This document shows, piece by piece, positions 34,451 to 43,830 of a stretch of DNA of 64,000 nucleotides. The position numbers and the translations under genes were made by a program. The notes beneath the pieces were generated by a model. The model searched no databases and was not told where the DNA came from. It saw only the letters and a program-made list of their open reading frames with translations. Position 1 is the first letter of the stretch, and every line of letters starts with the position of its first letter. The DNA is taken from the NCBI GenBank assembly GCA_035340095.1, contig DAORGN010000003.1, positions 732 to 64,731 on the forward strand, in the 5' to 3' direction. Source of the stretch: Pseudomonadota bacterium. GTDB taxonomy: Bacteria; Myxococcota_A; Polyangia; Palsa-1104; JAEUJZ01.

Positions 34451-36703
34451 ATGGACAAGTCTGTCCTCATCCAGCGTCTGCTTGAGACATTTCTCGTCGA
34501 GTTCGACGAGCGCCTGCAGGCCATGAGCCGCGGTCTGCTGGCGCTTGAAGCGAGTGCGACTGGGACTCCTGAGCGGGACAAAAACCTGCAAGAACTTCTG
34601 CGCAATGCCCACAGCCTAAAAGGAGCTGCGCGCGCGGTCGAAGTATCCCTGATTGAAAAGTCCTGCCATCATCTGGAAGAGATTTTGGCGGCGGTGCGCA
34701 ACCATCCGACCCTGCTCGACCAACACCTGATTCAGCTTCTGTTTGGTGTGCTGGACGGACTGGCGGAAGCAGGAAAGCTGCTTCGGAAACAGGAACCACT
34801 AGAGGGCTCGCTGTTGTTTGGCGTAGCGCTCGAAATGGAGATGTTTATCGAGAGCACCATCCGTCCGCTTGGAAAGGAACCGGCCCAGGCTCTAGCTGCG
34901 CCGCCACCAGCACAGATCGCGAAGTCCGATCCAAACGCTGATGCCGAAAATGCGGTCTCTTCCGATCTTCCTACGGTTCGTATCCACACCGAAAAGCTCG
35001 ATGCGCTGCTCACGCGGAGTGGCGAGCTGTTGACTGCGCGACAACATCTGCGTTTGACAAGCGAGCAGCTTTCACAGGTCGCAGATTCGATCCGAAGACT
35101 GGAATCGGAGTGGCGCCACCACGGCAAGGGGAATGCCAAAATCGGCAGTCCCACCAGCAAGACAGCGACGAAAACAGGCGATTCCCTGGTGGAAGAGACG
35201 CCCGCACGGCTGACCGAACTTGTCGCCCAGATCGACAAGCTTCAGCTTGCATTGCGCCAGGACTTGCGACAGCTGGAGCACACTGGATCAGCGCTCGATC
35301 AGCAGGTGTCGCGCATTCGCATGCTGCCGTTTTCGCATGCGTGTGTGGGTTTTGATCGAATGGTCCGCGATCTGGCCCGCAACAGCGGCAAAGACATCGA
35401 GCTACGAATCGAAGGCGGCGATGTCGAGCTGGATCGCTCCGTGCTCGACGCGCTCAAAGATCCGCTCCGCCACCTGATTCGCAACTCGATCGATCACGGA
35501 ATCGAAAGACCGGAAGACCGCAAGCGCAGCAAAAAATCGCCCCGTGGAACGATCATCGCTTCAGCTACGTTGCGCGGTGGACAAGTGGCCATTGTGATTT
35601 CTGATGATGGTCAGGGGCTTGTTGCGGATTCGATTCGCAAGCGTGCACAGAAGTTGGGAATGCCGATTCCTGACACCGATCAGAAGCTGATCGATGCGAT
35701 CTTTATGCCGGGTTTTTCGACGGCAGCGGACTCTGTTTCGATGGTCTCTGGACGCGGCATTGGACTTGATGTGGTGCGCAATCAGATCAAGTCTCTGCAT
35801 GGCGAAGTAGACGTTTCGTTTGTGCCCGGAAAAGGAACCCAGTTCCAACTGACTGTGCCACTGACACTGACGCTTCTGCGGGTACTTCTCATCCGTGCGG
35901 CGGATCAGACGTTTGTGGTCAGCAACAACTACGTGCACAAGCTGCTGCGGCTCCGGCAAAATGAAGTGATCTGGATTGGCGAAAGGCCGATGATTGTCAT
36001 CGACAATCAGCCCATTCATCTGGATTCCTTTGCGCATGCGCTGTCGCTTCGGCAACCGACAGGAATCACCTGGCAGGGAAAGCGTCCGGTGGTGGTGCTG
36101 CGTTCCGAACAGCGCACCGCTGCATTTTTGGTTGATGAGCTTGTCGCCGAACAGGAAGTGACGGTCAAAAGCCTGGGAAGTCGTGTAAAGCGAATCCGCA
36201 ACGTGGCTGGCGCAGTGATCATGCCCGATGGCCAGGTGGCGCTGACGATTCACGTTGCCGATCTGTTGCACACCGAGAAGCCAGATGAATCGCTGGGCGC
36301 GCTTCGACATGGCGGAGCACAAGACTCGGGTGAGCGCAAACAGAGACGGATCTTGGTCGTCGATGACTCGGTGACAACCCGCAGTCTGGAACGAAGTCTG
36401 CTGGAATCCGCGGGCTTTTCGGTCGAGCTGGCAGCAGACGGAGTCCAAGCGTGGGATCGCATTCAGTCCGGTGAAATCGATCTGGTGCTGTCGGATGTCG
36501 ACATGCCTCTGCTCAACGGCTATCAGCTCACGCAGACAATTCGCAAGTCTGAGCTCTTCCGTAAACTTCCGGTCATCTTGATCACCAGCAACGATGATCA
36601 GCGCAGCCGCGAACGCGGAATCGAAGCCGGCGCGAGTGCCTACATGACCAAAGGCACGTTTGATCAGAGCGTCCTGCTCAGCGTCATCGAACAGCTCATC
36701 TAG
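34451..36703 (+). CDS. cheA: CheA histidine kinase fused to a C-terminal receiver domain
   Basis: Hpt site LLRNAHSLKGAARAV, HATPase (DPLRHLIRNSIDHGIE, SDDGQGL, GRGIGLDVV), a CheW-like P5 domain, then REC (ILVVDDS...LVLSDVDMPLLNG...MTKG). Confidence 0.93.
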   Translation: MDKSVLIQRLLETFLVEFDERLQAMSRGLLALEASATGTPERDKNLQELLRNAHSLKGAARAVEVSLIEKSCHHLEEILAAVRNHPTLLDQHLIQLLFGVLDGLAEAGKLLRKQEPLEGSLLFGVALEMEMFIESTIRPLGKEPAQALAAPPPAQIAKSDPNADAENAVSSDLPTVRIHTEKLDALLTRSGELLTARQHLRLTSEQLSQVADSIRRLESEWRHHGKGNAKIGSPTSKTATKTGDSLVEETPARLTELVAQIDKLQLALRQDLRQLEHTGSALDQQVSRIRMLPFSHACVGFDRMVRDLARNSGKDIELRIEGGDVELDRSVLDALKDPLRHLIRNSIDHGIERPEDRKRSKKSPRGTIIASATLRGGQVAIVISDDGQGLVADSIRKRAQKLGMPIPDTDQKLIDAIFMPGFSTAADSVSMVSGRGIGLDVVRNQIKSLHGEVDVSFVPGKGTQFQLTVPLTLTLLRVLLIRAADQTFVVSNNYVHKLLRLRQNEVIWIGERPMIVIDNQPIHLDSFAHALSLRQPTGITWQGKRPVVVLRSEQRTAAFLVDELVAEQEVTVKSLGSRVKRIRNVAGAVIMPDGQVALTIHVADLLHTEKPDESLGALRHGGAQDSGERKQRRILVVDDSVTTRSLERSLLESAGFSVELAADGVQAWDRIQSGEIDLVLSDVDMPLLNGYQLTQTIRKSELFRKLPVILITSNDDQRSRERGIEAGASAYMTKGTFDQSVLLSVIEQLI

Positions 36704-36846: not shown

Positions 36847-37668
36847 ATGTGTATGGGTGTCGTGATCGGCTCTGTCACGGAAGAAGTTCCAGGACTTGCG
36901 ATACGCAGCTTCCTCGATCCGGAAGGACTCCGTCTTTCCGAAGAAGATCGCGAGCCGCGCAGTACAGAGGCCTGGATTCACTCGATCGTACTACACACCA
37001 CCAAAGGCATTCCGGGTGGTTCCGATCAGCGAAGACAGCAAATCCTCGATGGAAGTGGGCCGCACAAAAACCACATCGCTGCGGTTGCACAGGCCTGGGC
37101 ATCGGATCACATCTGCGCCAGCGCGCACTTCCTAATCGATCAGGATGGAACCATTGCCTGCGTCGCTGACTTGCTGACCGAAACGACGTACCATGCCGGG
37201 CAGCGCGCGGTGAATCACCACTCGATCGGAATCGAAATGTACCAAGGTGAGGAAGCAGAGCTGTACGCTTTCCAACTGGAACAGACTGTCCGTTTGGTGG
37301 ATTTTTTGACCCGGCGATTCGGCATTCAGCGACAGTTTCACGCCCCCTATCGCAACCAAGCGGTGCTGCGGATAAAGGAAGGTGGTTCGTCGGTGGTTGC
37401 CGTGTATGGACACCGTGAAGCCAGCGATGATCGGGGGGTCGGCGATCCAGGCGATGCGATCTTTTCGGCGCTCCTTGCGGCGGGTTATGAATGCTTTGAC
37501 TTCGACAAGGAAGAAGATCGCGCGGTGTGGAAAGTTCGCCAAACAGACCTAAACCAAAAGCTCGGTCTGTCACTGACTGTCGACGGAGTTCCCGGTCCGG
37601 AAACGGTCGTGGCACTGCGAACGGCGGGCTACCCGCATGGGATGTGGATTCCGCGCCCAGGGGACTGA
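36847..37668 (+). CDS. N-acetylmuramoyl-L-alanine amidase (Amidase_2/PGRP type) with a C-terminal peptidoglycan-binding domain
   Basis: The catalytic region is IVLHTTKG...HFLIDQDGTI...YHAGQRAVNHHSIGIEM...YGHRE. The C-terminal segment LGLSLTVDGVPGPETVVALRTAGY resembles PG_binding_1. Confidence 0.8.
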   Translation: MCMGVVIGSVTEEVPGLAIRSFLDPEGLRLSEEDREPRSTEAWIHSIVLHTTKGIPGGSDQRRQQILDGSGPHKNHIAAVAQAWASDHICASAHFLIDQDGTIACVADLLTETTYHAGQRAVNHHSIGIEMYQGEEAELYAFQLEQTVRLVDFLTRRFGIQRQFHAPYRNQAVLRIKEGGSSVVAVYGHREASDDRGVGDPGDAIFSALLAAGYECFDFDKEEDRAVWKVRQTDLNQKLGLSLTVDGVPGPETVVALRTAGYPHGMWIPRPGD

Positions 37669-37773: not shown

Positions 37774-38367
37774 ATGATGAAACAAACCGCACGCATTGTC
37801 CTTTCCGGTCTGTGGCTCCTATCGGGTTGTGGAACCGGGGAAGAAATCGAAGAGATCGACGTCGCGCCGCTGGAAGAAAAGGAAATCACGGCGACCTGTC
37901 CGCACAAAGCGCAGCTCAAGTGGGGTCTGCATCCCGACGCATCAGATCGACTGCGCTGCATCGGAATTGCCGCTGGGGACATCTCGCAGACGATTGGGAG
38001 TGCGCCCGCTTCCGCCGGATATCATGCACAAGACGGAACCGCGGGAGGCCAGCCGTACACCGCAGCGGTTGACATTCGGATCGGCGGACGCAGCGAAAGC
38101 CAGATTCGGGCGCTGCTCGCATCGCTCGGGTCGTATGGCTTCGCCGCGTGGTATCGCAAGCCCGGTCACGATGGCTGGCCAAGCGATGAAGCACCGCACA
38201 TTCACGCGGTCTACGCCGGCTGCGCGATGAAGGCGGCGCTCGACGAACAAGTCGGTGACTATCGCGCGGGTCGCAACGGCCTGTCGAGCCACACCCGCTA
38301 CACGTTCTGGACCGCGAGCCAAGCCGTCCGAGACGCCGTCTACAACCTGTGGAACAAGTACAACTAG
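37774..38367 (+). CDS. Lipoprotein, possibly a LAS/M15-like cell-wall peptidase (tentative)
   Basis: Lipobox LWLLSGC. Candidate metal ligands are GYHAQDG...AAVDIRI and EAPHIHAVY (H...D plus HxH). The enzymatic call is pattern-level only. Confidence 0.5.
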   Translation: MMKQTARIVLSGLWLLSGCGTGEEIEEIDVAPLEEKEITATCPHKAQLKWGLHPDASDRLRCIGIAAGDISQTIGSAPASAGYHAQDGTAGGQPYTAAVDIRIGGRSESQIRALLASLGSYGFAAWYRKPGHDGWPSDEAPHIHAVYAGCAMKAALDEQVGDYRAGRNGLSSHTRYTFWTASQAVRDAVYNLWNKYN

Positions 38368-38420
38368 CCCAGGTCCGCAAGAAAGCCGCAGTTTGCCGAC
38401 ATAAACTCGCCCTACCGCCG

Positions 38421-38540
38421 TTCACTGCGTACCAAATGGTACGGTCGAACACCTGCTTATTTCACAAATAATCCAAATCTTCCGATTAGGCACAATTGCC
38501 TATTCGCCACGTAAACTATTATTCACAGCGTACCGAAATG
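38421..38540. repeat. Imperfect direct repeat in the AT-rich island
   Basis: TTCACTGCGTACCAAATG (38421-38438) and TTCACAGCGTACCGAAATG (38522-38540). Each is preceded by TAAACT (38402 and 38512). The first copy contains the hairpin CGTACC-AAAT-GGTACG (38428-38443). Confidence 0.6.
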
Positions 38541-38583
38541 CACAAATTAAACAGGATCATTTTCATCAGAGCACATCATGTAA

Positions 38584-38592
38584 TTGTATAAT
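38584..38592 (+). promoter_or_regulatory. Consensus extended -10 element (TTGTATAAT) upstream of the Cys-repeat lipoprotein gene
   Basis: TGTATAAT at 38585-38592 within the AT-rich island. It implies a leader of about 165-170 nt before ATG 38766. Confidence 0.5.
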
Positions 38593-38622
38593 ATTACAGG
38601 AAATTTACTGGATCAGCCCTCA

Positions 38623-38649
38623 TGTCACACGGCTGTCACATTCGACACA
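38623..38649 (+). promoter_or_regulatory. Helically phased TGTCACA direct repeats (candidate regulator site)
   Basis: TGTCACA at 38623-38629 and 38634-38640 (11-bp phase), and the related CGACACA at 38643-38649. They lie between the putative promoter and the start codon. Confidence 0.35.
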
Positions 38650-38754
38650 TCAGGTGTTCACCCGACGGAAGAGCCCTCTATTTTCGCCCACTATCGCGAT
38701 ATACTCCTATTGGGTTTGCGTCCAACCCACTGTGCACATCGGACGTATACACTT

Positions 38755-38760
38755 AGGAGG
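38755..38760 (+). promoter_or_regulatory. Strong Shine-Dalgarno (AGGAGG)
   Basis: AGGAGG lies 5 nt upstream of ATG 38766. Confidence 0.7.
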
Positions 38761-38765
38761 TCCCA

Positions 38766-40343
38766 ATGAGTTTGCGTTGTCTTTCACCCTTGTTATTGGC
38801 TTTGTTTCTCTTCGCGGGCTGTAGCTCAGATACCACCAACGCCCAAGACATGTCACCGGCCCCAACCTGCGGTGCCGTCGGCCAGGCCTGCTGCGCGCCC
38901 GGCAACACCTGCGCATCGGGCGGAAACTGCGTCGGTGGTTACTGTCAGTCCTGTGGTGGCGCCGGCCAGGCCTGCTGCGCCGGTCGCGCTTGTGACGGAA
39001 ACGATGTCTGCACCGGCAACGGCCAAGGCATCTGTAGCCCGTGTGGCAATCCTGGCCAGCCCTGCTGCGTCGGCAACGGCTGCGGCAGCGTCGTCGCTGG
39101 CAACGTCGGCTGCTGCGTCAACAACGTCTGCTCGTCGGCGGGCTCGACCTGTCCGAACCTGACCGGTACTTGCACAAATGGAAGCTGCGGCACCTGCGGC
39201 GGCGCCGGCCAGCCTTGCTGCACCACCACCGTTGCTGGCAACACCACCAACTTCTGCACCGCCAATGGCATGACGTGTAGCGCCGGTCAGTGCGTCGCCT
39301 GTGGTGGCGCCGGTCAGCCTTGCTGCGCGGGCAGCACCTGCACAGGATCGGGCCTGGCCTGTGGTGGATCGAACATCTGTCAGCAGTGCGGTGGCGCCGG
39401 TCAGCCCTGCTGCGCTGGCAACGTCTGCACCGATTCGACGACGGCGTGTGGCAATGGTCTGTGTCGCGCCTGCGGTGGTCCCGGCCAGCCTTGCTGCGCA
39501 GGTTCGACGTGCTCGGCGGGTGGCTGCTGCGATCCGGGATCGAACAGCTGCCTCGCAAGCGGATCGGTCTGTTCAACGGGCGCAACCTGCAGTGCTGGCA
39601 CTTGCCCAGTCTGCGGCGCCCCCGGCCAAGCCTGCTGCCCCGGCAACACCTGCGGCGGCGGCGGCTGCTGCGTCGCGGGCCAGTGCGTTGCTTCGGGACA
39701 GAACATTCCCAACATGACCGGTTCGGTCTGCGCAAACGCGGCGACGGTCGCATGCGGCGGCAACAGCCAGCCATGCTGCGCGGGGAATACCTGCTCGACT
39801 TCGGGAGCGTGTTGCGGTAGCAGCACGACCTGCCTGGCTCCAACGGCGACTTGTGGTGGCACGCTTGGCACCTGCACCGCTGGTTCGTGTGGCACTGGCG
39901 GCAACGCCTGCGGCGGCGCGGGTCAGACCTGCTGTCAGAACGCGACCTCTGGCGCACGCTTCTGCACCACCACGGGCCTTTCGTGCAGCGGTGGCAAGTG
40001 CGCCGCGTGCGGCGGCCCAGGCCAGCCGTGCTGCGATGGCAACAGCTGCGCAAACGGTGGCTGCTGCGACAACAACAACCGCACCTGCATCGCCAGCGGT
40101 GCGACCTGCCCCGGTACGCTCGGCATGTGCACAAACAGCGGCTGCCAGTCGGGCACTTGCGGCAAGATCGGCCAGGCCTGCTGCGGCAGCGGCGTCGAGT
40201 GCACCGCGGCGTTTAGCACCTGCAACAACAACCAGTGCGTCGCATGCGGTGGCCAGGGCCAGCGCTGCTGCACGTCCAGCAGCGGAACCGACTACTGCGG
40301 CGCTCCGTTTGCGTGCAACAAGAACACGAACCGCTGCGGCTAA
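38766..40343 (+). CDS. Lipoprotein composed of 13 tandem Cys/Gly-rich units (CG-x-x-GQ-x-CC motif); family unknown
   Basis: Lipobox LFLFAGC (Cys19). There are 13 occurrences of C-G-x-x-[GS]-Q-x-C-C. A strong RBS and a long unbroken frame in a repeat-rich region support it. The opposite-strand ORFs are Arg-rich shadows. Confidence 0.8.
   Translation: MSLRCLSPLLLALFLFAGCSSDTTNAQDMSPAPTCGAVGQACCAPGNTCASGGNCVGGYCQSCGGAGQACCAGRACDGNDVCTGNGQGICSPCGNPGQPCCVGNGCGSVVAGNVGCCVNNVCSSAGSTCPNLTGTCTNGSCGTCGGAGQPCCTTTVAGNTTNFCTANGMTCSAGQCVACGGAGQPCCAGSTCTGSGLACGGSNICQQCGGAGQPCCAGNVCTDSTTACGNGLCRACGGPGQPCCAGSTCSAGGCCDPGSNSCLASGSVCSTGATCSAGTCPVCGAPGQACCPGNTCGGGGCCVAGQCVASGQNIPNMTGSVCANAATVACGGNSQPCCAGNTCSTSGACCGSSTTCLAPTATCGGTLGTCTAGSCGTGGNACGGAGQTCCQNATSGARFCTTTGLSCSGGKCAACGGPGQPCCDGNSCANGGCCDNNNRTCIASGATCPGTLGMCTNSGCQSGTCGKIGQACCGSGVECTAAFSTCNNNQCVACGGQGQRCCTSSSGTDYCGAPFACNKNTNRCG
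38868..40340 (+). repeat. Intragenic tandem repeat array (13 units, variable length)
   Basis: The units start at the codons for CGAVGQACC (38868) through CGGQGQRCC (40245). DNA-level identity is visible, e.g. GGTGGCGCCGGTCAGCC at 39303-39319 and 39390-39406. Confidence 0.85.
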
Positions 40344-40400
40344 GCCCGAATCTGGCTGACAGACTCGCCATGTTGTCGGCCTGACCCCACCCTGTGCAAA

Positions 40401-40419
40401 GCCCGTCCATCCGACGGGC
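40401..40419. terminator. GC-rich hairpin between convergent genes (possible bidirectional terminator)
   Basis: GCCCGTC-CATCC-GACGGGC, a 7-bp stem, 58 nt after the Cys-repeat gene stop and 11 nt from the acetyltransferase stop. No U-tract. Confidence 0.4.
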
Positions 40420-40429
40420 CATCCAGTCC

Positions 40430-40960
40430 CTAATACACCCGCAGCGCTTTGGCAGGATTGCCAGCGACGATGGTGCGCGGCGGAACTGACTGGGTGACGA
40501 CGGCTCCAGCGCCGACCTGCGCGTTTTTTCCGATCGTAATGCCCGGCAAGAGGATCGCGCCGACGCCGATGTCGCAGCCGTCTTCGAGGGTGACTTTGGC
40601 AAACGCAAGCGGGCGGTGCAAAATCGGCGCAGTCGAGCCGTCGGGCGTCGCGGGAAGCTCGTGGGCGCTCGTCAGAATCATGACGCGCGGGCCGATGCCG
40701 ACGTCGCAGCCAATCTCGATGCCGCCGGCGGAATGAAAGAATACGTCTTGGCCAATCCAGGTGCCGCAGCCGACGCGCAGCTCGTTTTTGTAATAGCCCT
40801 TCAAGATGGCGCGGTGGCCGACGTAGACGCACTCACCCAGCGAGACGTTTTCCGGATGAAAAATGAGCACGCCTGGCTCAATCACCACCGATTCGGGGCA
40901 AGCGGCAAGCTGGCTGCGCGAAAATTCCCCGCTGCCGTGGCTGCGCGGCGCAGGTCGCAT
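40430..40960 (-). CDS. Hexapeptide-repeat (left-handed beta-helix) acyl/acetyltransferase
   Basis: Repeated [LIV]-G-x-x-x-x hexapeptides (IGCDVGIGPRV, GCDIGVGAILLPGITIGKNAQVGAGAVV) and the C-terminal VAGNPAKALR. TAATG overlap with the upstream OM protein gene. Confidence 0.85.
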   Translation of the reverse strand: MRPAPRSHGSGEFSRSQLAACPESVVIEPGVLIFHPENVSLGECVYVGHRAILKGYYKNELRVGCGTWIGQDVFFHSAGGIEIGCDVGIGPRVMILTSAHELPATPDGSTAPILHRPLAFAKVTLEDGCDIGVGAILLPGITIGKNAQVGAGAVVTQSVPPRTIVAGNPAKALRVY

Positions 40961-43830
40961 TAGTACTGGAAGCGCACGCCAAACTGGGCGCGGAACGGGG
41001 TCTGCCGACTGAGCACGGTGCCGAACGTCGTCGCGATGTCACGGTTTTCAAAGCCGGCATGGTTGCTGCCACCAATCGGCGTCGAGGTATCGAGCACGTT
41101 GAACAAGTCGACGATCAGCGACAGGTGCTGGCGGACGAGTTCGTACATGTCAAACTGCATGCGCACGTTGATTTCGACGAGGTCCGGGTTGCGCAGCTCG
41201 GTCCACTTGCGCACGTCGTTCGGGTCCGCCGCCGGATCGAGTCCCCGCCAGCCATAGCGGTTTAGGTAGCCCGCGCTCGTCGGTTTGCTGCCGCGATAAA
41301 TGCGCGACGCCGGTGCGCCGGACAGATAGGTCAGGTTGACGCCGCCGGTGAGCCCGTGGAACGTGTAGCTGGACTGAAGCTTGACCTGGTGGCGGTGGTC
41401 GTCGGACAGATAGCCATAGAACCGCAGGTCGCGCGGAATGTCGTTGCGCAGCTGCGACATCTGATCGTCGACCGTTCCGTCGAGAAACGACAGCGTATAC
41501 GAAGCAAACACCATCCAGTTGGGACTGGGGTTGCCCGATACCACGAAGTCGACGCCGTTATAGCGACGGTATGCCTCGGCGGTGGGACGATAGCCATAGA
41601 CGTTGCCGCGGCGAGGATCGGCAAACTGGACAAACTTGCTACCGTCGAGCGCGCTGACCGCGTTTAGCTCGATGTTTTCCCACAGGTACGACGTCATCCG
41701 GTACGAGTAGGTGATGCCGCCGATGATGTTCTGGAACAGCTCGCGCTCAAACGATACCGTCACCGAATCGGCGTGCGGCGGCGTCAAGCTGAGCTTGGCG
41801 TTGCCACACTCGGTGGTGAAGCTGCCATCGGCACAGCGTCCGCGCAGATCGTAGCCATCGCCGCCACCCGACGACGTGACCCAGCGGTCAAAGCGACCCG
41901 TCGCGCGGTTGAAGTTCCAGGTGTTCGACTGATACGTCGCGTCCGCCGAAAACGTCGGCAGAAGGCTCACGACTTCGTTGGCCCGGCCATACGCCGCCTT
42001 CAGCAGCGTTTTGCCGTCGCGGGTCAGGTCGATGTTGACACCGAGCCGCGGCCCAAAGCCAAGCAGGTTCTGCACCGTTTCCGCGCGTGAGTTCTGCGTC
42101 GTTCCATAGTCGACGCGCAAGCCCGGCACCACCGTCAGCCACGACGTTGGCTTCCAGGTATCTTGCACGAAAAAGCCGACGCCAAGGCCATAGCGAACCT
42201 GCGCGAGCGCGGGATCAAACGAGTTGAACTGGTAGCACGGCGTCGCCGCAGAACCGGCTCGGACCTGCGGCTGCGCCTGCACACAGCCCGCCGATCGGTC
42301 CGTCGACGTCGGATCACGCGCCAGCACCGATCCATCTGCTGACGTGTCGTCGACGTACACCGAGTTGGCCGGCGTCCCGGTATACAGGTAATGGCGAATG
42401 AACTGGCCTTGGATACCGGCCTTGAAGGTGTGCTGACCGATCCAGCCTTTTTTCACCCAAGTGATGTTCGGATCGAACTGCACGCGCCAGCGCTTGTCGT
42501 CGGTAAATCGCGCTTCGCCAGCGTTGTTCCAGGTGATGCCGTTGGCGCCGTCGATGTGCTGCGGCGACACCTTGTCGGCGCTCATCGGGTCGACGGAAAT
42601 GTTGCTGTAGATGACGCCGGTTTGCAGGTTGAAAATGACGTTGTCGCTGACGAAGTAATCGTAATTCAGCGACGTGAACGCCCCACCCTGGCGCTGGATC
42701 GTCTCGGCTTCGTTGGCGTAGGCGTTCGACTGGATCGTGTTGTAGATCCACGCCGGATCGGCATTGAACGACAGCTCGACGCGATGACGCTGCGCGGGGG
42801 CCCAAGTCAGCTTCAGCCGCGGATACGCGCCATAAAATTCGCGCGTCGCGTGCTGCAAGTTCAGCGGCGTACCCGGCACCAGCGCCGACGCGGTATAGCG
42901 CAGCTCCGTCGACAGGTAGTACCACAGCTTCTGCTTTACGATCGGACCGCTTAGGTTCAGGTTGAGCTGATACTGCGCATTGGGCGGACGCGGATCGCTC
43001 TGGTCGAGGAGCCGGCCTTCATAAAGCTGCGTTCCCGCGCGCGATCCCGACGACAGCTTCTGGTGGTTTAGATAAAAGCTCGTGTCGACGGAAAACTTGT
43101 CCGAACCACGCTTGGTGACCAGGTTTATGACACCGCCGAGCGAGTTGTACTGCGCGTCGATCGCCAGAAGCTGGGTATCAACCTGACCAATCGCGTCGAA
43201 GTTAAAGTTTGCCGAAAAGGTATTCGACACCGGATCGGTGATGTCGAGTCCGTCGACGAGATAGCGGTTGTGACGCAGCGAGCCACCGGCCATCACTGGG
43301 TTTGAACCACCGACGACGCCAGGAAGCTGCTGCACGATGTTCTGGTAGCTGCGTCCGGTTGCGATCTTGGCCTGCTGGTCGGACGTGAGCACGCGGCCCG
43401 TCGAGACTTTTTCGGAATCGATGCGAGCGCGCTCCTCGAAAATCTTGGTCGTCTCGCCTTCGGCCATCTCGGCGGCAAAGTCGATCTTCAGCGTGCGCGT
43501 CTCACCCAGCGCGAGCTTGACCCGGCGCTTTATCGGCTGCAGACCTTCATACTCGACGGTGATGTCGTAGCTGCCGTGCGGAATTGACAAAAAGTCAAAA
43601 CGCCCGTCATCGTCGGTGGTCGCGGACTTGCTGCCACCAATCATCGCATCCGACCGCACCGTCACTTTGGCGCCCGGCATCGGCACGCCTGTGCCCGCCT
43701 CTAACACCACGCCTTGCAGACGAGCATTTTGCTCGCCGACGGCCAGTGCCGCACGCTCGGCCAACGTCGGAACGACCACAAGCGAAGTCAGCCAAATGAG
43801 ACGCTGCGCGAAAAAAAAGCGACGCCGCAT
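40960..43830 (-). CDS. TonB-dependent-receptor-like outer-membrane protein with N-terminal carboxypeptidase-regulatory-like domain (Oar family-like)
   Basis: Signal peptide, then the CarbopepD_reg-like segment LQGVVLEAGTGVPMPGAKVTV...DDDGRFDFLSIPHGSYDITV. A long beta-barrel region follows, ending in the terminal aromatic FGVRFQY. Confidence 0.82.
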   Translation of the reverse strand: MRRRFFFAQRLIWLTSLVVVPTLAERAALAVGEQNARLQGVVLEAGTGVPMPGAKVTVRSDAMIGGSKSATTDDDGRFDFLSIPHGSYDITVEYEGLQPIKRRVKLALGETRTLKIDFAAEMAEGETTKIFEERARIDSEKVSTGRVLTSDQQAKIATGRSYQNIVQQLPGVVGGSNPVMAGGSLRHNRYLVDGLDITDPVSNTFSANFNFDAIGQVDTQLLAIDAQYNSLGGVINLVTKRGSDKFSVDTSFYLNHQKLSSGSRAGTQLYEGRLLDQSDPRPPNAQYQLNLNLSGPIVKQKLWYYLSTELRYTASALVPGTPLNLQHATREFYGAYPRLKLTWAPAQRHRVELSFNADPAWIYNTIQSNAYANEAETIQRQGGAFTSLNYDYFVSDNVIFNLQTGVIYSNISVDPMSADKVSPQHIDGANGITWNNAGEARFTDDKRWRVQFDPNITWVKKGWIGQHTFKAGIQGQFIRHYLYTGTPANSVYVDDTSADGSVLARDPTSTDRSAGCVQAQPQVRAGSAATPCYQFNSFDPALAQVRYGLGVGFFVQDTWKPTSWLTVVPGLRVDYGTTQNSRAETVQNLLGFGPRLGVNIDLTRDGKTLLKAAYGRANEVVSLLPTFSADATYQSNTWNFNRATGRFDRWVTSSGGGDGYDLRGRCADGSFTTECGNAKLSLTPPHADSVTVSFERELFQNIIGGITYSYRMTSYLWENIELNAVSALDGSKFVQFADPRRGNVYGYRPTAEAYRRYNGVDFVVSGNPSPNWMVFASYTLSFLDGTVDDQMSQLRNDIPRDLRFYGYLSDDHRHQVKLQSSYTFHGLTGGVNLTYLSGAPASRIYRGSKPTSAGYLNRYGWRGLDPAADPNDVRKWTELRNPDLVEINVRMQFDMYELVRQHLSLIVDLFNVLDTSTPIGGSNHAGFENRDIATTFGTVLSRQTPFRAQFGVRFQY

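Follow-up and report, generated by a model that had tools for sequence, protein, structure and literature searches.

We analysed a gene for a cysteine-rich lipoprotein that lies on the forward strand of a 64-kb stretch of DNA (64,000 nucleotides of contig DAORGN010000003.1; this whole stretch is hereafter called the window) from an uncultured member of the Polyangia (Myxococcota). We observed that its 525-residue product is built almost wholly of 13 cysteine-rich units arranged in tandem, and that these units belong to a large repeat family that is present in no curated collection. We favour, with a probability of about 0.55, the reading that the protein is a rod of the envelope or the cell surface, locked by ~48 disulfides and serving as a coat or an adhesive module.

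A lipoprotein precursor followed only by cysteine-rich units

A preliminary description of this DNA, made from its letters alone, had proposed a 525-aa open reading frame (ORF) with a lipoprotein signal ending in Cys19 and 13 units opening with C-G-x-x-[GS]-Q-x-C-C. Both proposals were confirmed. The segment MSLRCLSPLLLALFLFAG-C19, with LFAG directly before the cysteine, satisfies a PROSITE PS51257-type lipobox rule, and Cys19 is invariant in a five-way alignment of orthologues. Exactly 13 copies of the unit motif are present in the protein, three of them reading CGGAGQPCC, and none was found outside this ORF in a six-frame translation of the window. The length of the units varies as described, the measured range being 28-52 aa instead of the roughly 28-55 aa first given. 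We consider it very probable that the architecture is that of a lipobox precursor, a 15-residue tether and then only cysteine-locked units up to the last residue (Table 1). The sequence features point to an exported, N-terminally lipid-anchored protein with a probable outer-membrane or surface location; the Ser at position +2 would suggest that it is not retained in the inner membrane.

The number of cysteines is even in all the 13 units. Together with Cys5 of the signal peptide and Cys19 of the lipobox they make a total of 98, and the mature region is 19.6% Cys. The remainder of the 525-aa protein is dominated by small and polar residues (G 107, A 59, T 54, S 46, N 39), and the rarer residues are present in the numbers F 6, Y 2, D 9, E 1, K 3 and R 7. 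This agrees with the composition noted earlier, as His and Trp are absent and we counted 8 Phe plus Tyr and 20 charged residues. Abutting units are joined by a C-x-x-C junction, with only two residues between the closing Cys of one unit and the opening Cys of its successor; in units 8, 9 and 11, by contrast, the last Cys is followed by 5-6 residues.

The gene is under selection and the array is old

The gene is real, conserved and under selection. A look-up of identical proteins, a biased sample as it retrieves identical proteins only, returned this protein from 10 metagenome contigs of several samples, SRR14932570, SRR14234082 and ERZ27268135 being examples of samples with the exact gene; six copies of the gene were compared and differ by 0-9 nt, all of the differences being synonymous. 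A single scan covering 185,579 species genomes yielded four orthologues of 83, 71, 54 and 55% identity. All of them come from Myxococcota metagenome-assembled genomes (MAGs), labelled Polyangia, 'Myxococcales' or 'Deltaproteobacteria', and the related MAGs derive from bioreactor or activated-sludge type samples. When the gene is compared with its two closer orthologues (loci L007 and L008), the ratio of non-synonymous to synonymous substitution rates (dN/dS) is ~0.14. In the five-way alignment 94 of the 98 Cys positions are invariant, compared to 151 of the 427 other positions (35%). The preliminary description had named a cysteine pattern not conserved among orthologues as the mark of a low-complexity artefact, and the pattern turned out to be conserved. 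A low-complexity or wrong-frame artefact was rejected on the dN/dS, the Cys conservation and the confidence of the structural models.

It had also been suggested that the unit number could vary by recombination, and our data do not support this. The best cross-species match of each unit is its positional counterpart (13/13, 13/13 and 11/13 units in three comparisons), and paralogous units inside one protein share only ~38% aa identity. Every copy at 71-100% identity has 13 units; the 54-55% orthologues have 14, the extra unit being C-terminal. The repeat identity reported at the DNA level does exist: the 17-mer GGTGGCGCCGGTCAGCC occurs at 39303 and at 39390, and the DNA around the 13 motif regions is 60-78% alike and was recovered as a direct-repeat family. 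No DNA tandem array was seen by TRF. As the units are positionally orthologous, their count is constant, paralogues are only ~38% identical and there is no TRF array, we concluded that the array is old and fixed, and is not a recombining, length-variable repeat.

The repeat belongs to a large undescribed family

The whole protein had no match in Pfam or NCBIfam at E ≤ 10, and with single or double units the only line in these collections was an insignificant one to the Pfam model DUF5885 (E 1.8). Searches of PDB sequences with the whole protein and with a two-unit piece gave nothing significant (best line, Aca toxin 1, E 1.6), and Rfam had no match on 38200-40600. Hence the earlier statement that no family could be named stands as far as Pfam and NCBIfam are concerned, and the profile hidden Markov model (HMM) check that it had called for, with the whole protein and with units, gave no significant match to a characterised repeat family. 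A structural analogue, the framework-XXXII conotoxin Mo3964, had however been overlooked, and so had the size of the family to which the protein belongs.

A word-indexed search found at least 300 relatives, those listed being unnamed or 'hypothetical protein', and the cluster-member names of ten family proteins were solely 'hypothetical protein'. A profile of 147 six-Cys units was run against 1.84 billion clusters at 50% identity; 1112 cluster representatives matched at E ≤ 1e-3, and single proteins have as many as 19 units. Apart from the relevant papers on TraA and on conotoxins, no published account of the repeat was found in the literature searched. The repeat family is large and undescribed, belongs to no curated family, and would make a straightforward new entry for Pfam or NCBIfam.

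In 125 family proteins we counted 1025 units, ~900 of which were tallied for their cysteines. The tally comprises 562 six-Cys, 225 ten-Cys and 30 eight-Cys units, and odd counts occur in only ~13; the larger even counts arise because a unit start was missed. The six-Cys units follow form A, C-x6-CC-x4-C-x5/6-C-x4/5-C, and the ten-Cys units follow form B, C-x6-CC-x4-C-x4-CC-x4-C-x6-C-x6-C-x4-C. A lipobox is present in 122 of 223 members (~55%). The array usually reaches the C-terminus, the median distance from the start of the last unit to the end of the protein being 33 aa. A minority of the relatives add a Peptidase_S8 domain (plus an I9 propeptide), FG-GAP repeats or a VWA domain, and in those carrying them the Peptidase_S8 and FG-GAP domains sit N-terminal of the array. 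The window protein has fewer charged residues than the family median (3.5% vs 10.7%), and its T+S+N content of 26.5% is at the 94th percentile of the family.

Five matches were found on viral-classed contigs. On two of these IMG/VR contigs (L014 and L016) there are short members of the family, each with three motifs, and the other three matches are isolated single motifs. We do not regard the repeat as a viral feature.

Another explanation of the protein is a tandem protease-inhibitor array that shields the envelope of a protease-secreting predator, by analogy with multi-domain Kazal, antistasin and Bowman-Birk inhibitors. Small disulfide-rich domains in tandem, the presence of the repeat and Peptidase_S8 in the same polypeptides and a producer belonging to the Polyangia would all suit such a function. 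However, the searches showed no similarity to any inhibitor family, no conserved reactive-site-like loop was seen, and the variable loops are different from unit to unit. We regard this explanation as improbable.

Predicted fold and disulfide pairing of the units

AlphaFold2 with the family alignment modelled the full chain with a mean predicted local distance difference test score (pLDDT) of 79.4 and a predicted template modelling score (pTM) of 0.52, and each unit in this model is a set of short beta-hairpins. Unit 4 alone, modelled with the unit alignment, reached a pLDDT of 95.9 and has four strands. A Foldseek search of the PDB with the full model found nothing at E<0.1; the lines to Pfs25, wheat germ agglutinin (WGA) and fibrillin were discarded as not significant (template modelling (TM) score <0.2), and BFVD lines to Pithovirus Cys-rich or EGF-like arrays (TM ~0.1) were rejected as generic.

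These models do not support the flat, possibly ice-binding beta-solenoid that had been envisaged. They are strings of small, discrete hairpin units, as seen by DSSP, varying in length over 28-52 aa, and neither the full nor the unit-4 model had an antifreeze or solenoid structural match in Foldseek. An ice- or crystal-binding solenoid would be consistent with the T+S+N content and the very low charge of the window protein, both of which are extreme for the family, but most members are normally charged (at the median given above), and the related MAGs are of bioreactor or activated-sludge type origin. Such a solenoid is hardly credible.

The pattern of cysteine losses is informative about the pairing. 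We examined 1564 unit instances, and C2 and C5 were the sole pair of cysteines lost together, in three unrelated proteins (P0202, P0023 and P0074); both are likewise lost from unit 12 of L009/L010. As no other pair is lost in this way, a C2-C5 bond in the six-Cys unit is supported by the sequences. This co-loss agrees with the 2-5 pairing in Mo3964, but not with the 2-6 pairing that synthetic Lv32.1 is reported to have. By analogy, C1-C3 and C4-C6 would be the other two bonds. In units with a G-C-T-A-P-[FY] context the joint loss of C2 and C5 is repeated and makes a natural 'two-disulfide' variant.

We infer that the cysteines in the units are of the disulfide type, which amounts to ~48 intra-unit disulfides in 506 mature residues. 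The densely disulfide-bonded exported lipoprotein of the preliminary description is supported. So high a Cys content would also suit a thiolate metal-binding protein, that is, an exported metallothionein-like buffer or a mineral nucleator, and BFVD gave a line, not significant, to a 'prokaryotic metallothionein' (E 8.5). However, even Cys counts per unit, the loss of C2 and C5 as a pair, export of the lipoprotein to an oxidising compartment, the absence of His, and beta-hairpin folds that are confidently predicted without metal all speak against metal binding, for which we see very little likelihood. Metallothionein itself was rejected, as the product is an exported 525-aa lipoprotein with even Cys counts, paired loss and no family match.

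The six-Cys unit resembles the conotoxin Mo3964

Conotoxins of framework XXXII (C-CC-C-C-C) open with C-G-Y-L-G-[QE]-P-C-C, the opening motif CGxxG[QE]xCC being documented for this framework, and Mo3964 is bonded 1-3, 2-5 and 4-6 (PMC9741281). We observed the following. When a profile of the bacterial six-Cys unit was searched against 177,635 distinct PDB sequences, 2mw7 (Mo3964) came first with E = 0.0053, and the alignment matches all six Cys. A local Foldseek match of the full model to 2mw7 covers 31 columns with 32% identity and a root-mean-square deviation of 1.3 Å (TMt 0.70, prob 0.85), but its E-value is 0.98. The segment aligned there is probably unit 13, which has loop lengths identical to those of Mo3964 (6-0-8-5-6) and 10/31 ungapped identities with it. 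With a local HMM built from 534 bacterial units, framework-XXXII peptides reach 17.5-23 bits, whereas Cys-fixed shuffles score a mean of 5-7 bits with a standard deviation (sd) of ~3, so that the real peptides lie ~4-5 sd above them. The C-CC-C-C-C framework is present in 8/13 window units and in 562 of the ~900 family units. On this evidence we conclude that the six-Cys unit would work like the framework-XXXII fold; common descent is unproven.

The resemblance to a venom peptide framework raises the idea of a polyprotein precursor that is cleaved to 13 free conotoxin-like peptides, either toxins or antimicrobials. Multi-domain precursors of disulfide-rich peptides have eukaryotic precedents, which count in favour of this idea. 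However, abutting units are separated by the two residues of a C-x-x-C junction only, and no junction has a conserved cleavage motif. Moreover, the protein is lipid-anchored, each unit is conserved by position, and in relatives the arrays are fused to enzymes. We judge a cleaved polyprotein to be most improbable.

Proposed mode of action

On our reading, the lipoprotein would be exported and oxidised in the periplasm, where the intra-unit disulfides would form. The basic unit, C1-G-x-x-G-Q-x-C2C3 ... C4 ... C5 ... C6, would fold as two short beta-hairpins, and the ten-Cys form would be this six-Cys unit plus a further sub-domain. The two-residue junctions where units abut and the moderate pTM suggest that the array is a semi-rigid, protease-resistant rod and not beads on a string. 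Its surface would be the active part, serving either as a coat or for adhesion or binding of a multivalent, low-affinity kind, and the protein would not be an enzyme, a toxin or a metal store. Its distal position in the lipoproteins and secreted enzymes of relatives suggests an autonomous extracellular or envelope module. In the window protein this surface would be nearly free of charge, with much Thr, Ser, Asn and Gly, and the low charge and high T+S+N content suggest that it is inert or hydrogen-bonding. The coat or adhesive role taken by itself is a tentative proposal, for which the chances are somewhat short of even.

A rival explanation is that of a specific ligand-binding array, similar to a carbohydrate-binding module (CBM) or an adhesin, that binds a periodic polymer and targets the attached lipoprotein or enzyme to it. 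The cell's own exopolysaccharide, peptidoglycan or a prey cell wall would be candidate polymers. The C-terminal, distal position of the array after subtilase and FG-GAP domains is usual for binding modules; glycan enzymes are encoded near some of the members (GT2/GT4; PMT/mannosyltransferase; a WcaF-like acetyltransferase beside the window gene); and the Foldseek list of the full model includes a weak line to WGA (E 2.0, TM 0.18). On the other hand, that line is not significant, no CBM or hevein model matches, the neighbourhoods are heterogeneous, and aromatic residues are few (F+Y+W+H 1.2%, no Trp). For the latter reason and for want of a Pfam match, hevein or chitin-binding type 1 (CBM18) domains were rejected. 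We consider a specific ligand-binding array unlikely.

Several observations weigh against the reading of a surface rod made of Mo3964-like units. The same scarcity of aromatic residues argues against classical carbohydrate binding. A reverse profile of ten conotoxins, searched against the window ORFs, did not retrieve the target ORF under the HMMER null2 correction, and without composition correction it aligned mostly the 10-residue opening motif. The unit-4 model had no Foldseek match, and 2mw7 was not recovered with it. As the reverse and single-unit searches gave no confirmation, homology with Mo3964 is unproven, and the link is borderline. Synteny is shared only with the 83% orthologue, and eight other family contexts are heterogeneous. 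As the neighbourhood is not conserved past the closest relative, the gene context gives no functional lead.

Upstream region and neighbouring genes

We aligned 400 bp upstream of the window gene with the same region of the two closest orthologous loci, L007 and L008 (Table 1). Four conserved blocks emerged, namely the inverted repeat GTACCAAATGGTAC, GATATACT with its TATACT, the short inverted repeat and the Shine-Dalgarno block; as control elements they are better candidates than the TATAAT. Of the expression signals reported earlier, AGGAGG is present and ends 5 nt ahead of the start codon, and so is the AT-rich island, with a GC content of 0.40-0.43 at 38400-38700 vs 0.60 for the window. 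The 'consensus extended -10' is only partly borne out: a TATAAT exists, but TG abuts it directly (TGTATAAT) instead of forming TGnTATAAT, the box is not conserved, and it was not called. A scan for sigma-70 promoters and terminators called no promoter, and no terminator on the + strand. The TATACT hexamer has no -35 and hence was not called by the sigma-70 scan. Between it and the Shine-Dalgarno sequence, the arms of the GCGTCC ... GGACGT repeat are kept in the three species and its loop varies. From this sequence comparison, the TATACT together with the inverted repeat appears likelier to be the promoter and 5'-untranslated region (5'-UTR) than the TATAAT. The more distant repeat GTACCAAATGGTAC is a candidate regulator binding site, as it is conserved and its perfect copy is the sole one in the window.

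Upstream on the + strand, 37774-38367 encodes a predicted 197-aa lipoprotein with no Pfam, NCBIfam or PDB-sequence match, and directly before it is an Amidase_2 (peptidoglycan amidase-like) gene (36847-37668); this pair is kept in L007 only. Further upstream (34451-36703 and beyond, seen in L001) there is a chemotaxis cluster with CheW, methyl-accepting chemotaxis proteins, a periplasmic-binding-protein-type receptor and a CheA-CheY hybrid. Two genes of the - strand converge on the target gene. The first (40430-40960) encodes a hexapeptide acetyltransferase; in NCBIfam it comes closest, below threshold, to polysaccharide acetyltransferases of the WcaF/WbbJ type. The second (40960-43830) encodes a CarboxypepD_reg plus outer-membrane protein (OMP) beta-barrel protein.

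Elsewhere in the family, P0005 adjoins GT2/GT4 and Asn synthase genes, P0033 adjoins PMT-type and mannosyltransferase genes, and P0019 has a thioredoxin-like gene nearby. Family paralogues can also adjoin: at locus L020 (3226-6878) P0034 is directly preceded by an unannotated gene of 604 aa, which is presumably P0094, a protein of the same length encoded on the same 386-kb contig.

Table 1. Features of the lipoprotein gene and its upstream region (window coordinates)
Feature	Position	Strand	Remarks
Inverted repeat GTACCAAATGGTAC	38429..38442		Conserved upstream of L007 and L008 orthologues; degenerate copy at 38530-38543
TATAAT, extended -10 of the preliminary description	38587..38592	+	Present; not conserved in L007 or L008
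TATACT, -10-like hexamer within GATATACT	38700..38705	+	Conserved in window, L007 and L008; candidate promoter element
Short inverted repeat GCGTCC ... GGACGT	38718..38746	+	Between -10-like box and Shine-Dalgarno sequence; possible 5'-UTR hairpin
Shine-Dalgarno AGGAGG	38755..38760	+	5 nt before ATG; block CTTAGGAGGT invariant in L007 and L008
Coding sequence, Cys-rich repeat lipoprotein precursor	38766..40343	+	525 aa plus stop, ATG start (ORF list)
Signal peptide and lipobox (M1...LFAG-C19)	38766..38822	+	Cys19, predicted lipidation site; PROSITE PS51257-type rule
Short tether, aa 20-34 (SSDTTNAQDMSPAPT)	38823..38867	+	15 residues; from sequence; pLDDT <50 in model
Array of 13 units	38868..40340	+	From motif positions, Cys counts and models
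Unit 1	from 38868 (aa 35)	+	Six-Cys 'A' unit
Unit 2	from 38952 (aa 63)	+	Six-Cys 'A' unit
Unit 3	from 39042 (aa 93)	+	Ten-Cys 'B' unit
Unit 4	from 39195 (aa 144)	+	Six-Cys 'A' unit; opens CGGAGQPCC
Unit 5	from 39300 (aa 179)	+	Six-Cys 'A' unit; opens CGGAGQPCC
Unit 6	from 39387 (aa 208)	+	Six-Cys 'A' unit; opens CGGAGQPCC
Unit 7	from 39471 (aa 236)	+	Ten-Cys 'B' unit
Unit 8	from 39612 (aa 283)	+	Eight-Cys variant
Unit 9	from 39753 (aa 330)	+	Ten-Cys 'B' unit
Unit 10	from 39909 (aa 382)	+	Six-Cys 'A' unit
Unit 11	from 40008 (aa 415)	+	Ten-Cys 'B' unit
Unit 12	from 40158 (aa 465)	+	Six-Cys 'A' unit
Unit 13	40245..40340 (aa 494-525)	+	Six-Cys 'A' unit; Cys spacing 6-0-8-5-6

Comparison with known systems

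Proteins of the kind described here are already known, as myxobacteria have other surface proteins with Cys-rich tandem repeats, for example TraA (PMC3325183). The repeats TIGR04201 (TraA stalk region) and TIGR02232 are likewise tandem, Cys-rich and extracellular, and belong to surface proteins of Myxococcota. However, a PA14 head and a MYXO-CTERM tag are found in TraA, whereas the window protein has a lipobox and repeats only. A TIGR02232/TIGR04201 or DUF4215 repeat was rejected, as the protein and its units had no NCBIfam match at E ≤ 10 and no DUF4215 match in Pfam. The preliminary description had set the protein apart from the myxobacterial disulfide repeat, hevein and metallothionein, and the lack of any significant match to TIGR02232, TIGR04201 or a Pfam family agrees with this. 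What is extreme for a bacterial chain is the density of ~48 disulfides in 506 mature residues, and such a number per chain implies a heavy dependence on periplasmic oxidative folding. The function of the protein could bear on the envelope, matrix or predation biology of myxobacteria.

Two further systems share features with the array. The Plasmodium proteins Pfs25/Pvs25, which have four EGF domains, stand at the top of the Foldseek list of the full model (E 0.34-5, TM <0.2, not significant). They are lipid-anchored to the membrane, consist of tandem mini-domains only and have been proposed to form a surface sheet. The likeness lies solely in the design, as no Pfam EGF model matches the units and they are thus not EGF domains. 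Disintegrins, in their N-terminal segment CG-x-PGNPCC-x4-C, have the local motif CGxPGxPCC-x4-C in common with the units. Their matches to the unit profiles are not significant (ten-Cys profile, E 0.04; six-Cys profile, E 1.7-8) and have a high compositional bias with a per-domain E of ~9; the downstream Cys pattern differs and there is no RGD loop. The ten-Cys profile matched nothing in the PDB significantly; the lines to disintegrins and the LDL receptor were biased.

The closest likeness of the six-Cys unit is to Mo3964 (PDB 2MW7) and to Lv32.1, Qc32.1 and other peptides of framework XXXII, with which it has the framework C-CC-C-C-C in common. The opening motif C-G-x-x-G-[QE]-x-C-C is common as well, as seen from CGYLGQPCC in Qc32.1 and CGGAGQPCC in the window protein. 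Window units 4, 10 and 13 have an aromatic residue before C4, and the proposed C2-C5 bond agrees with the 1-3/2-5/4-6 map of Mo3964. The differences are also clear. Conotoxins are single secreted venom peptides of ~32-37 aa from cone-snail M-superfamily precursors, whereas the window protein is a bacterial lipoprotein with 13 units fused head to tail. The C3-C4 loop has 4 residues in most of the window units vs 7-8 in framework-XXXII conotoxins, and four window units, unlike Mo3964, bear an extra four-Cys sub-domain. A conotoxin identity was rejected, as an M-superfamily precursor and venom-peptide biology are lacking, and no toxin function is implied. We do not class the protein as a conotoxin, because it is a bacterial lipoprotein gene product of 13 fused units from Polyangia MAGs.

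A tiny unit with very high model confidence thus matches a rare toxin framework in its motif, its Cys spacing and one probable disulfide. It is a candidate stable scaffold for peptide engineering, and a test case for convergence versus deep homology of disulfide-rich mini-folds. We consider it rather doubtful that there is true homology between the six-Cys unit and the framework-XXXII fold and that the arrays are a new class of disulfide-locked surface fibrils. If this were true, a rare venom-peptide scaffold would have a large unseen reservoir in Myxococcota, either through ancient common origin or through horizontal transfer, and bacteria would possess surface fibrils with ~50 disulfides per chain.

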